This document shows positions 35,577-51,982 of a DNA stretch of 64,000 bases, piece after piece. Below the pieces are notes generated by a model, which was not told the origin of the DNA, did not search any database, and saw only the letters and a program-made list of their open reading frames with translations. A program made the position numbers and the translations under genes. This DNA is from a virus, in the UHGV virus genome UHGV-0178594; one strand, given 5' to 3'. How positions within the stretch are numbered: position 1 is the first letter of the stretch; each line of letters begins with the position of its first letter.

Positions 35577-35847
35577 GGCTTTTACTCCACGATAGCAGGC
35601 ACAAAAAAAGGCCGCACATGGCGGCCTGCTTTGGCGTTATGACTCCCTACCGCGCATCGGCTGAAAGTTAGTCGTCAAAAGAACCTTCAACGGGAGCCGT
35701 TTGCGCAATGGATTTTGTCCAGATTGTGATTTCCAGAATAGTGTCAACAATTTTTTTGAATTTTTTATTCGCGCTGAATTTGGCCTAGGTCATTTTGGCG
35801 TAGATGTTTGCTTTTGTAACATAAAACTTCAGTTTTTTTACATGAAG

Positions 35848-36465
35848 GATGGTTTTGTGAAGTTAAGGGTTTTGGGAGCAGTGCTCGCGGTTATATTGGG
35901 GGGAGTTTCTCTTAATGCTGCCTATGCAGGCGCATTACCTGCAAAGTATGAGGCTGGGCTGAAGGTGTTGCGAAACGCCAAAACAAACTATACGCCTGAT
36001 GAAGTTTCAAACTATTGCCAAAAAGAAAATATCCCACTGAAACCTGTAGAGCCATTCTTTAAAAGCAACATTGAGTTCTGTGTATTTGCGTATGCAGCAG
36101 ATGAAACAGGAAAGGCCATACAAAAGACAGGGTATTCCACCAAAGACACAATGTCGGTGTTAAGTAACGGCGTGTTGCAGTTTGAGCTTTATCGTCAGCA
36201 AGGAATGGGAGATCTATTGCAGCCTTTGTATGGTCTAGCATTGGTGCCGGAAGGTCAGCAGTTTCTGATCAAAAAAGGCCTCATGAGGCAGGAAGATGTA
36301 GCTGGTTTCGATGCCATCGTTGCCTATGAAAAACAACTCAAGGAACAGCGCAATAAAAAACCATCTGCCTCATGCGTGCAAAGCAAAACAGCAGAATACA
36401 GCGCAGTGGCTGGGCCTTTAGCCCCACAAATGGCAGAGCAATGGTGTAAACAATACGGGCAATAA
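35848..36465 (+). CDS. Secreted/periplasmic protein with signal peptide
   Basis: From ATG 35848: MKDGFVKLRVLGAVLAVILGGVSLNAAYAG; the ORF track gives a longer 35701 start. Confidence 0.4.
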   Translation, partial: DGFVKLRVLGAVLAVILGGVSLNAAYAGALPAKYEAGLKVLRNAKTNYTPDEVSNYCQKENIPLKPVEPFFKSNIEFCVFAYAADETGKAIQKTGYSTKDTMSVLSNGVLQFELYRQQGMGDLLQPLYGLALVPEGQQFLIKKGLMRQEDVAGFDAIVAYEKQLKEQRNKKPSASCVQSKTAEYSAVAGPLAPQMAEQWCKQYGQ

Positions 36466-36485
36466 GTTACGCAGCGGAGGCAGAA

Positions 36486-36878
36486 TTGAAAAGATTAGCT
36501 ATTGCTTTATTGGCAGCTTTCCCTTTGATCGCTCACGCCGGGAATTTACAAGTGAAGTGCGGTAGGTTTGATATAAAAATCTATCCGAACGCCATATTTC
36601 TGAATGGGAATAAGGTCGATAACGCGCACCGGAAAACTGAATCTGACGTAATGAGCTATGTGTTCCAGGAGTATGCCGAGATGGGGGGAACTTACACGTT
36701 GTACTCGCTGGATGTTCCTTCTCGCGGTGATATGACGTTATCTCATCAATGGCAGAACGCCGATGGCGAAGCTCTGCGCGAGGTTAAAACAGAAAAATGT
36801 GGCACTTTCCATTCTTTTAAAGGGAAAGCGCCCAATGTTAAATCTACGCTTGAAAAACAGCGTGCTGGTGAGCTTTAA
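36486..36878 (+). CDS. Secreted/periplasmic protein with signal peptide
   Basis: MKRLAIALLAAFPLIAHAGN.. classic Sec signal with AHA cleavage site. Confidence 0.45.
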   Translation: MKRLAIALLAAFPLIAHAGNLQVKCGRFDIKIYPNAIFLNGNKVDNAHRKTESDVMSYVFQEYAEMGGTYTLYSLDVPSRGDMTLSHQWQNADGEALREVKTEKCGTFHSFKGKAPNVKSTLEKQRAGEL

Positions 36879-37213
36879 GCCCCTTTAATCACGGAGATTT
36901 CGTTTCCCGCACGATAGCGGCGGGGAACGGAACTCTCCATCAGGTCACGAATTACTCCCGCTTCACGCAGTTCCTCTGTCTCCCAGTATCTGTTTGTCAC
37001 CAGGTCAAGGCTGGCAATGACTTTATGCCGGTCATTCGGCATTGCTTCTTTTTCAGCCATTATCATCAGTGAGAACTCTTCATCCAGTAGAATTTGATAC
37101 CAGACTTTTGACAGTTCCAACTCTCTAATGAGGGTGAAGCGCCGCTCAATTGTGGCGGAAGAATAAGTGAAATCAATTTTTTTCGTGACATACATTTTGC
37201 TGTGTCCGGTCAC
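36875..37213 (-). CDS. Hypothetical protein
   Basis: 112-aa ORF. Confidence 0.3.
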   Translation of the reverse strand: MTGHSKMYVTKKIDFTYSSATIERRFTLIRELELSKVWYQILLDEEFSLMIMAEKEAMPNDRHKVIASLDLVTNRYWETEELREAGVIRDLMESSVPRRYRAGNEISVIKGA

Positions 37214-37251: not shown

Positions 37252-38178
37252 TTAACTAACAATCCAGTCGGTCGCTGCTACATCTTCTGGCTGTAAATCA
37301 ATCGCACAGATCTTGCCGTCGCGAAAGGTGCGCCAGTTTTTCCGTGAGCCTCTTTCGGGCCATACCCAGACACTTTCAGGCCAGGATGCTCGACGGCATA
37401 CGGTTGCATACCCTGTTTTAATCTTCTCTCTGGCGGTATGCAACGACAGGTTTGCCTTTGGACTTTCAGGCACAGGATGGTGAATGGCCTGAAATAGCCC
37501 CATCCTGGGATGATACCAGCGTTTGTTGCGTGGTTCAGCCTCCGACATAACCTGCTTAAAGGCTTTCCGGAAGGGGGCCAGGGCCACAATGGAGCGTCTC
37601 GCAAGCAAACCATCGGGAGTTAAAAACTCATGCGTATCTGTGGGGATCCGGTAAGCGTTGACCAGGTTGCGGCATTTGGCTTCAGTCAGGCCGCATTTCG
37701 CCGCTAACTGGCGATAGCCAATGTAGCCTTCCGGAATATTGCCTTTCTTTATTTGCTCGACGGTTTCAGCGACTTTGGTCACTTGTGCCGATACTTCGGC
37801 TACCTGGGCATTAACGGCGTTGATCCGGCGTTCATGCTCAAGATGCATTTGCGCCATTTCGGCCAGAATTTCGGCTTTTGATTTTAACGGTCCTCTGGCA
37901 TTCTCCAGTTCGCGCCAGCGGTCCACCAGCCGGGCGGTGAATTCGGGAGAGAGCTGCGCGACGACGATAATGCTATCGCGCTTGCCTTGTTCGCCTTCGA
38001 AGACGTAATAGCTCGCCGGGCGGCCTGCAGTGGGCTTTTCCTCAATTTGAGGAAAAGTTATTACGCCCCGTTCCGCCAGGTGTTCAATGGTGCGTTTAAC
38101 GTTGTCAGGACGCTTACCCACCAGCTCCGCGATCTCAATACTGGTCATTGTCGCTTTTTGAGAGATGGACAGATTCAT
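37252..38178 (-). CDS. Rha-family regulatory protein / antirepressor candidate
   Basis: N-terminal ..MTSIEIAELVGKRPDNVKRTIEHL.. resembles the Rha/antirepressor N-terminal domain; coiled-coil middle. Confidence 0.5.
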   Translation of the reverse strand: MNLSISQKATMTSIEIAELVGKRPDNVKRTIEHLAERGVITFPQIEEKPTAGRPASYYVFEGEQGKRDSIIVVAQLSPEFTARLVDRWRELENARGPLKSKAEILAEMAQMHLEHERRINAVNAQVAEVSAQVTKVAETVEQIKKGNIPEGYIGYRQLAAKCGLTEAKCRNLVNAYRIPTDTHEFLTPDGLLARRSIVALAPFRKAFKQVMSEAEPRNKRWYHPRMGLFQAIHHPVPESPKANLSLHTAREKIKTGYATVCRRASWPESVWVWPERGSRKNWRTFRDGKICAIDLQPEDVAATDWIVS

Positions 38179-38393
38179 CAGTGCACCTCCACGCAGTTCA
38201 TTGGCAGATTCCAGTAATTGAGGATCTCCATCGCATCAAGAGTGAAGCGAGCAGCAAAAATGCAGGGTTCTTCGGGAAGGTATGAGCGCGCTTCTGCTTC
38301 GGTTGCAGCCATGACGCAGATATACAGGTGTTTTTGGCAGGAATAGAAACGCCAGATAAATTCAGAATGAGTTGGGGTAGGGATAGTAGCCAT
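38178..38393 (-). CDS. Small protein upstream of and overlapping the antirepressor gene (icd-like position)
   Basis: 71-aa ORF with strong RBS AAGGAGG; 1-bp overlap with the antirepressor start. Confidence 0.3.
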   Translation of the reverse strand: MATIPTPTHSEFIWRFYSCQKHLYICVMAATEAEARSYLPEEPCIFAARFTLDAMEILNYWNLPMNCVEVH

Positions 38394-38399
38394 ATTGGC

Positions 38400-38640
38400 A
38401 GCCTCCTTTGACTAAGTTAAGGAGCTACCGCGTGAGGTTCCAATCTCAATGGCGGTAGCACTGACTGGGTTGGAACTACCGGCGTCAAAGGGAACCGGCC
38501 TGCCTTTCGGCAGCCCAGCCAGCACTACCATTGATCTCTGAGCTAAACGCTAAGTATGGCTGTGCGATGGCATGACACAAAAAAAGACGCGTTCGGCGTC
38601 TGTGTCGCCTTTGACATTATCCGGGGTTCCAATCCCGGCA
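38400..38640 (-). ncRNA. Structured leader / candidate c4-like antisense regulatory RNA region
   Basis: Hairpins GCTACCGC..GCGGTAGC and CTGCCtttcGGCAG; GGTTCCAATC occurs twice (38427, 38619) with its complement TTGGAAC at 38466. Confidence 0.25.
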
Positions 38641-38706
38641 CCCGTTTTTCTAAGGTGCCGTAGAAATATACCCCACGATAATGCCAGGGCGCAACTGTGT
38701 GTTTTC

Positions 38707-38874: not shown

Positions 38875-39195
38875 TTTGACACCCCCAGCGCGAGTAAAGA
38901 ATGCAGATTATCGCGTGAGTGGCGGACAACGAGTGATGGGAAAAGACAGTAGCTGTTCATAGTGTAGTGACTCCTTGCTTTCGGAGCCGCCATCGACTGT
39001 TCCACGGTCTGGTGGCGGCGCAATAAAGGTTGGAACACCGTGAGTCAACGGGGGCTTTTCAGCCACCTATATTGCACCGCCATTGGTATGGCGGCGGCAA
39101 TCATACGAAAAACCAAACGGTTTGTCTCAAAAAGTTGACCGGTGTACCAATCGGTTGTGAATGTACAACGGCGAATCTCACAATTCAACTTAAAA

Positions 39196-50633: not shown

Positions 50634-50809
50634 CCTGCAACTTATCCTCAAAGGTGAAAAGATTTGAGGATTCGCATCATTAATAACACCGACAAGCATC
50701 CGGATGATTATTTGGATTGCTCGTTAGCAGAGCGCGTGGAATTGATATAAGAGAATCTCCGCGCATCGGCAACACACAGCTAAATATGTTCGCAATAAAG
50801 GGTAAATCA

Positions 50810-51211
50810 ATGGCTAAATTTCGGAGAACTATTATTTTTCTGGCAATGTTATCTGCCTGCCATTTATCACATGCATCGGTTATTGTTGCAACCGCCGCAA
50901 CAACGGCAGCAATTAGCGCCTCAGCCGCAAGCGAGCAGGAGCAACGCACTGCAATCAATGCATCCGCAAATACTACCACTGTAGCAGTCACGCAAGATAA
51001 GCCAAATATAGGCTTTGTTACTTGCGGAAAACGGTATGGAGAGACGGTCGGTTCTCTTGGTTGCGCAGTGTGGCATGACGAACGAGCAGAAATTCCGTGG
51101 AAATCATGGCCTGGTTACATTCTTGGCGAAAAGATACCCACCAGCTATGAAGTAAATGCTATTTCGTTCGACCAATATAACAGAGTCGCAACGGTCTACT
51201 TTTCTTATTAA
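50810..51211 (+). CDS. Lipoprotein candidate
   Basis: From ATG 50810: MAKFRRTIIFLAMLSAC.. (lipobox-like LSAC). Confidence 0.35.
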   Translation: MAKFRRTIIFLAMLSACHLSHASVIVATAATTAAISASAASEQEQRTAINASANTTTVAVTQDKPNIGFVTCGKRYGETVGSLGCAVWHDERAEIPWKSWPGYILGEKIPTSYEVNAISFDQYNRVATVYFSY

Positions 51212-51772: not shown

Positions 51773-51982
51773 ATGAGGCATTTTTTAAGGCTGGCATTTG
51801 TTCTGGCGCTATTTGCTCCTCCGGCTGCGATGGCTGGAGAACAGCAGCACTGTGTAACTGAATCAGAGAATCTTGTAATAGTCACTCAATGCGATGACGG
51901 AACGGTGACCGTGGTTAATGTACGAGATAACCGTGTAGCCGTGTGTCGTAAAGGCGAATCATGCAAGGAGATAAAGCTATGA
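51773..51982 (+). CDS. Small secreted Cys-containing protein
   Basis: Signal-peptide-like MRHFLRLAFVLALFAPPAAMA. Confidence 0.3.
   Translation: MRHFLRLAFVLALFAPPAAMAGEQQHCVTESENLVIVTQCDDGTVTVVNVRDNRVAVCRKGESCKEIKL

Follow-up and report, generated by a model that had tools for sequence, protein, structure and literature searches.

Two tandem genes for predicted periplasmic proteins in a D6-like phage-plasmid: candidates for superinfection exclusion

Two small tandem genes, each with an apparent export signal, lie beside the immunity region of a viral genome (UHGV-0178594), and they raise the question of what their products do in the envelope of the host. A preliminary description of the locus, made from the sequence alone, took the genes as candidates for superinfection exclusion by reference to the periplasmic Sim proteins of P1-family phages. 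To answer the question, we analysed the whole stretch of 64,000 nucleotides in which the genes lie (the window), together with related plasmids. D6/P1-like phage-plasmids are common in Escherichia coli, Shigella and Salmonella, and to our knowledge the exclusion of competitors by these elements is almost unstudied.

Two predicted exported proteins between mat and the icd/ant operon

The window is identical to the E. coli plasmid NZ_CP104667.1 (91.7 kb; 100% identity over the 1.5 kb compared), and the match to phage D6 is limited to the first ~290 bp of the same 1.5-kb stretch. Gene order and annotation (tail genes 24/7/25/26, mat, the two genes, here called ORF1 and ORF2, a 112-aa gene, the anti-repressor gene, icd and ref) mark the element as a D6-like phage-plasmid and not as P1, which does not support the P1-family framing of the preliminary description. 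ORF1 and ORF2 have mat on one side and, on the other, the 3' end of an operon of the immI type (C4-icd-ant). They lie on the strand opposite to the flanking late genes, and the stop codon of ORF2 overlaps that of the convergent 112-aa gene (Table 1). The two genes are best explained as an accessory operon of the D6-like phage-plasmid. In the immI-like region an isrK-like RNA was also found just upstream of the C4 RNA (38580-38658, minus strand; Rfam, 61 bits), as was a second, weaker C4-like element (39008-39087, minus strand; Rfam, 42 bits, just under the gathering score), and in the rest of the plasmid a second icd/Rha module adjoins the lytic replication gene (L019).

Both reading frames are real and co-oriented, and the end given previously for the pair, 36878, is exact, while no start codon stands at 35848, the position from which the pair had been said to begin. 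The ORF1 frame is open from TTG 35701, which is the PGAP start, and ATG 35842 is an alternative start. The PGAP start adds 52 residues absent from the homologues, whose N-termini begin at MKLR, and is probably too long. Both proteins carry the Sec signal peptides that had been claimed for them: a basic n-region leads into 13-15 hydrophobic residues, and an A-x-A cleavage site follows (AYA↓G in ORF1, AHA↓G in ORF2). In ORF1 the MKLR n-region is followed by the h-region VLGAVLAVILGGVSL and by NAAYA↓GALP, and in the ORF1 family a [LM]P[AP] motif comes directly after the cleavage site; the N-terminus of ORF2 reads MKR-LAIALLAAFPLIA-HA↓GNLQ. Every ORF1 and ORF2 homologue, down to ~30% identity, has a signal peptide that differs in sequence and is alike in design. 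Since this design is kept across the homologues, since a natural fusion of the two proteins (described below) keeps only the first signal peptide, and since both genes are under purifying selection, the signal peptides are more than a chance resemblance. Neither cleavage region has a lipobox Cys at +1, and a second hydrophobic segment was found in the sequence of neither protein. The mature proteins have invariant Cys residues, four in ORF1 and two in ORF2, and the conserved Cys pairs suggest disulfide-stabilised periplasmic proteins. These features strongly indicate that both products are exported by Sec, cleaved by signal peptidase I and soluble in the periplasm.

A crude signal-peptide screen of the 64 kb, which took ATG-started ORFs of at least 60 aa (a set outside which the TTG-started ORF2 falls), flagged nine ORFs including ORF1 and a spanin-like lipoprotein ORF. 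Signal-peptide-like N-termini were also seen in this screen for ORFs of 141 aa (50786-51211, plus strand) and 69 aa (51773-51982, plus strand), which may encode additional secreted accessory proteins.

Table 1. Features of the locus in the 64-kb window, and related type VI cargo modules in other records (coordinates of the records named).
Feature	Coordinates	Strand	Remarks
Candidate sigma-70 promoter (weak) for ORF1 and ORF2	35795..35822	+	TTGGCG, 16 nt spacer, TAACAT
ORF1 Shine-Dalgarno	35845..35849	+	AAGGA, 7 nt upstream of GTG 35857
ORF1	35857..36465	+	202-aa secreted precursor (predicted); start GTG 35857 most likely
ORF1 Sec (SPase I) signal peptide	35857..35928	+	predicted cleavage AYA↓GA; design conserved across family
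ORF2 Shine-Dalgarno	36476..36480	+	GGAGG, 5 nt upstream of TTG 36486
ORF2	36486..36878	+	130-aa secreted precursor (predicted); start TTG 36486
ORF2 Sec (SPase I) signal peptide	36486..36539	+	predicted cleavage AHA↓GN
112-aa gene	36875-37213	minus	last gene of icd/ant operon; convergent with ORF2
ant	37252-38178		
icd	38178-38393		
C4 antisense RNA	38448-38535	minus	Rfam, 77 bits
Matches to TTAATTTTCTAACAC	18918, 27689/27706, 39195, 39826/39843, 44745/44762, 58094, 59490, 63932/63949		putative repressor operator
Type VI cargo modules	L023 4001-5711; L022 4001-5227; L024 2531-4318; L017 4929-6159		Enterobacter-group phage-plasmids and a chromosomal contig

The candidate promoter of the operon scores 8/12, which is below the threshold of the scan tool, and its TAACAT hexamer and a TTGnnn -35 element are kept in D6 and L007. 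In the window the 15-mer TTAATTTTCTAACAC has 15 matches with up to three mismatches, compared with 2.3 expected. The matches often stand as divergent pairs ahead of genes, ref among them, and the repeat probably serves the C1-type repressor of D6-like phage-plasmids as operator; the P1 C1 operator ATTGCTCTAATAAATTT is absent from the 64-kb window. The interval between mat and ORF1 has no such match. As the operon would thus escape the putative repressor, we infer that it is plausibly, and probably, expressed in the lysogen. P1-type late promoters were not found in the window, and late transcription of the operon is possible too, because a D6-like late-promoter motif is not definable. On the minus strand (35598-35747), D6 and the Enterobacter plasmid share with the window ~115 strongly conserved nt that come after a perfect -35 hexamer, TTGACA (35747-35742). 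A canonical intrinsic terminator (stem 35627-35609 and seven consecutive T) closes this conserved stretch, leaving only ~25 nt to the start codon of mat. The stretch has no Rfam match and a fold z-score of -2.2; it may be a small RNA, or else a terminator or attenuator leader by which mat is controlled.

Protein families, joint action and cassette exchange

The statement of the preliminary description that the two proteins have no further recognisable domain was confirmed, as Pfam hits remained far below the gathering scores and NCBIfam and PADLOC gave none. Homology to unrelated periplasmic enzymes, which had been named there as a result that would speak against exclusion, was looked for and not found, and searches of PDB sequence profiles with ORF1 and ORF2 gave a best E of 0.92, which is not meaningful. 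Full-length matches were obtained in PHROGs, with ORF1 belonging to family 12786 and ORF2 to family 13864, both annotated as 'unknown function'. Since tblastn of both proteins against 50,697 phage records gave no match, the members of these PHROG families must derive from prophages or plasmids. Both families are tiny: the ORF1 family comprises 7 clusters at 90% identity and 21 representatives at 50% (1.84 billion proteins searched) and the ORF2 family 35 clusters (5.8 billion proteins); members with a named organism are nearly all from Enterobacteriaceae, many of them on plasmids or contigs of 40-110 kb. AlphaFold2 models of moderate confidence depict the mature domain of ORF1 (~178 aa) as all-helical (pLDDT 79, pTM 0.68) and that of ORF2 (~112 aa) as beta-rich with one helix (pLDDT 75, pTM 0.66). 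For the ORF2 model, Foldseek against viral models (BFVD) returned no match at E <0.05 or at a TM-score of at least 0.45. An enzymatic role of the conserved ORF1 motif GYS[TY]KDT was considered and rejected, as the motif is by eye not of the SxxK/SLT kind and the fold search gave no lysozyme-like match.

Both genes are under purifying selection, with dN/dS of 0.10-0.41 for ORF1 and ~0.05 for mature ORF2. The dN of ORF1 is ~3 times that of mat, and several records have an ORF2 with a frameshift or a truncation. In one pair of plasmid lineages dS was 0.22 for ORF2 versus 2.3 for mat and 1.7 for ORF1; the low value for ORF2 suggests a recent spread, sweep or exchange, or an extra constraint on its DNA. 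Any transcript that read through from the ant operon would be antisense to ORF2. Outside the D6-like locus, ORF2 was found alone between IS1 and IS21 on the conjugative multi-replicon plasmid pEcFELIX724.1 (L004, 5974-6393), an IncF plasmid (L011, 5001-5606) was found to carry a solitary ORF1 homologue (45% identity) close to sslE, and ORF2 fragments of 81-90 bp are present on several other large plasmids. These lone copies and fragments indicate that ORF1 and ORF2 also travel outside phage-plasmids.

ORF1 and ORF2 are adjacent in all plasmids of this cassette type (type B) that were inspected, i.e. in the present stretch and in L012, L013, L015, L016 and L071. In pLH214-1, a record labelled Vibrio, an ORF1 homologue (31% identity) has an ORF2-like sequence directly downstream, which is detected by tblastn as two pieces and probably represents a disrupted gene. 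In the Enterobacter hormaechei plasmid p60214CZ_1 the same slot holds one fusion gene of 277 aa, in which residues 1-169, with the signal peptide, resemble ORF1 (37% identity) and residues 164-276 resemble mature ORF2 (69% identity); the last ~30 residues of ORF1 and the signal peptide of ORF2 are missing, and only the first signal peptide is kept. A second, far more divergent fusion of 281 aa is present in P0051, so that secreted fusions of 277-281 aa occur in two divergent lineages (L008/P0048 and P0051). Gene fusion is classical evidence that two proteins belong to one complex or pathway. Because they are fused in Enterobacter plasmids, ORF1 and ORF2 would act together, probably as a complex, and the fusion proteins lead to the direct prediction that ORF1 binds ORF2.

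The slot that the pair occupies is not constant among D6-like plasmids. In phage D6 the position between mat and the C4/icd/ant operon is taken by orf79, the N-domain of which is 52% identical to SimB of P1. By tblastn, ~59 D6-like plasmids carry a SimB-like gene in the slot and ~65 carry ORF1 and ORF2 (over all plasmids, 67 contain ORF1 and 87 ORF2, with 65 of each at full length). The ORF1 upstream region and the first ~17 codons of ORF1 persist in the SimB-type cassettes, where these codons run in frame into the SimB-like gene, before the signal peptide that this gene itself encodes. Moreover, three plasmids (pS143-4 and two others) are hybrids with an intact ORF1 directly upstream of the SimB-like gene, and the variant L006 combines a different N-domain with the same orf79-type C-domain. 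The cassette type differs between L013 and L014 even though their mat genes are 99% identical (dS 0.085). Within ORF1 itself, comparison with a plasmid sharing 96% identity with the window over the whole locus revealed a replaced patch of ~100 codons, with mat and ORF2 nearly identical. The patch is recombinant and the cassettes have been swapped between backbones, which gives the slot an accessory, fast-changing character. If the cassette worked by recognition of the injected transglycosylase Sit, its type might be expected to follow the variants of sit; no such linkage was found, as the same variable segment of sit (at least 99% identical) occurs with both cassette types. For the plasmids pSL26_91 and pYU39_89, divergence of both the slot region and sit was reported in 2019 (PMC6799933); in our comparison of the two, the differences lie mainly in the slot with its right-hand flank and inside sit.

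Superinfection exclusion weighed against other functions

Superinfection exclusion is our best single guess for the function of ORF1 and ORF2, a tentative one that is drawn by analogy from their position, operon association and architecture. The operon would be read in the lysogen from its own weak sigma-70-type promoter (predicted), and in the periplasm the pair would stop a related phage that has adsorbed to the cell but whose DNA has not yet arrived in the cytoplasm, possibly by binding of ORF1 and ORF2 to a component of the ejection machinery that crosses the periplasm. Superinfecting D6/P1-like phages would in this way be excluded by proteins unrelated to Sim. The proposal is plausible because a SimB relative holds the same slot in sister plasmids, and the alternation with the SimB-like gene, the hybrids of ORF1 with that gene, the upstream DNA shared by the cassettes and the absence of a Sim homologue from the plasmid all argue for it. 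It is weakened by the lack of similarity of the two proteins to Sim and by the fact that SimB, the sole Sim relative linked to the slot, has no demonstrated role, and furthermore by a cassette type that does not co-vary with sit, by distant ORF2 relatives that adjoin type VI cargo and by the broken ORF2 copies in several records. A bolder form of the exclusion proposal appears doubtful, namely that the pair forms an unrecognised two-component periplasmic exclusion (or immunity) complex, with folds that have no solved relative, unrelated to Sim and interchangeable with the SimB-type cassette, in a slot that acts as a swappable 'specificity locus'. If it is true, this 'specificity locus' decides which related phage-plasmids superinfect a lysogen.

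The position of distant ORF2 relatives beside type VI cargo points to a different kind of envelope defence, in which the pair, or ORF2 alone, would be a periplasmic immunity or inhibitor module that binds and neutralises an envelope toxin delivered by competitors, for instance a colicin, a lysozyme-like enzyme or a type VI effector that attacks peptidoglycan, and so would serve the host as 'orphan immunity'. Small soluble periplasmic proteins with conserved Cys pairs are typical of immunity proteins, and members of the ORF2 family (27-31% identity) head a type VI module in other P1-like phage-plasmids. In L023 this module consists of the ORF2-like gene, a peptidoglycan effector with a Tlde1 domain, which begins after a gap of 2 nt, a ~90-aa protein with two transmembrane segments, and Hcp; L022 and L017 have no effector, and the same 2.1-kb module is present in a chromosomal contig of Pseudenterobacter (L024). 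At 45 Tlde1 loci of different species, however, an intact ORF2-like neighbour was found at only one and a degraded one at only one other, and the ~90-aa protein lies downstream of the effector at nearly all of them and is the likelier Tlde1 immunity protein; the idea that the ORF2 family provides the cognate immunity was thus rejected, as it is not a conserved neighbour. In addition, neither the window nor the D6-like plasmids examined have an effector, Hcp or other toxin gene near ORF1 and ORF2, and ORF1 has no type VI association. Fold comparison gave no match with Ivy or MliC/PliC or among the solved immunity proteins, and the characteristic Ivy, MliC/PliC or PliG fold is absent. Taken with these results, a toxin-immunity function is unlikely.

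A role in lysogenic conversion of the envelope that concerns neither phages nor toxins, for instance a change in envelope stress responses, in adhesion or in how well the host survives in the gut or urinary tract, is rather unlikely. It agrees with the position of the operon as accessory cargo that is present only in some plasmids, with its own putative promoter and no putative operator upstream, with the confinement of the families to plasmids of host-associated Enterobacteriaceae, and with the occasional presence of ORF1 or ORF2 alone on non-phage plasmids; nothing specific points there, however, and the alternation with the SimB-like gene and the mosaicism of ORF1 fit a conflict with other mobile elements better. 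Much less probable still is a periplasmic role in the lytic cycle under late expression, in the timing of lysis or in entry or release of the phage's own DNA, to which the neighbouring morphogenetic or late genes mat, 26 and 25 and the possibility of late transcription would lend themselves. Here an unrelated cassette fills the slot in about half of the sister plasmids, and because it does so even in the functional phage D6, ORF1 and ORF2 cannot be needed for growth; the lysis genes are elsewhere, with spanin-like ORFs at ~19.8-20.4 kb, and the pair is transcribed opposite to the flanking late genes.

Two or three interchangeable secreted cassettes behind one shared upstream region would offer a convenient handle for studies of exclusion at the level of entry, and the slot could bear on the incompatibility and spread of phage-plasmids. 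If the pair confers immunity to toxins instead, the locus provides an example of phage-plasmids with orphan immunity genes. Either way, the findings add incrementally to the knowledge of accessory genes and do not introduce a new principle.

Comparison with Sim and other envelope proteins

By BLASTP, profile-profile comparison (hhalign probability of at most 0.3%) and PHROG family membership, ORF1 and ORF2 are not homologous to SimA, SimB or SimC. For SimC, BLASTP against ORF1 and ORF2 gave E of at least 4 and hhalign a probability of 0.3% with both profiles, and SimC belongs to PHROG 14355 as opposed to 12786 and 13864; for SimB the BLASTP E was at least 0.8 and the hhalign probability 0.3%, and the C-domain of orf79 did not match either protein. 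When SimA, SimB, SimC and orf79 were compared by tblastn with the whole plasmid, the best E was 0.35 and no Sim homologue was found. By these comparisons the two proteins are not members of the Sim family.

Several phage and prophage envelope proteins block entry, among them Sp and Imm of T4, Cor of phi80 and N15, Llp of T5 and gp15 of HK97. These are membrane proteins or lipoproteins, in contrast to ORF1 and ORF2, which have neither a lipobox nor a second hydrophobic segment, and searches of PHROGs and BFVD gave no similarity to any of them. Immunity proteins of the Tldi1 type are likewise small, Sec-exported and periplasmic, and a distant subgroup of the ORF2 family stands directly upstream of a Tlde1 effector and Hcp; for this type, no Pfam or NCBIfam model was matched. 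Tldi1a of Salmonella has a Sec signal (PMC9638812). The D6 orf79 family (PHROG 13054), which joins a SimB-like N-domain to a C-domain of ~130 aa, shares with ORF1 and ORF2 both the slot and the predicted secretion, and differs from them in being unrelated in sequence, in consisting of a single gene and in having a homologue in SimB of P1.

The closest parallel in layout is the sim operon of P1. Maillou and Dreiseikelmann are said to have placed the site of action of Sim in the periplasm in 1990; SimB is regarded as a 'putative accessory' protein only, and we know of no mechanism for P1 Sim. The sim genes are dispensable for plaque formation by P1 (PMC10695390), and simC is the gene that is cited for exclusion (PMC2409434). 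The P1 operon encodes three tandem proteins, each with a signal peptide, beside c4-icd-ant, compared with the two genes found here, and it diverges from the c4 promoter, whereas ORF1 and ORF2 converge on the 3' end of the ant operon. The cleavable Sec signal peptides and the periplasmic location predicted for ORF1 and ORF2 recall SimC. Both elements thus place a tandem of small proteins with Sec signals beside the immI (C4 RNA-icd-ant) region, and by this analogy ORF1 and ORF2 may do the same job as Sim.
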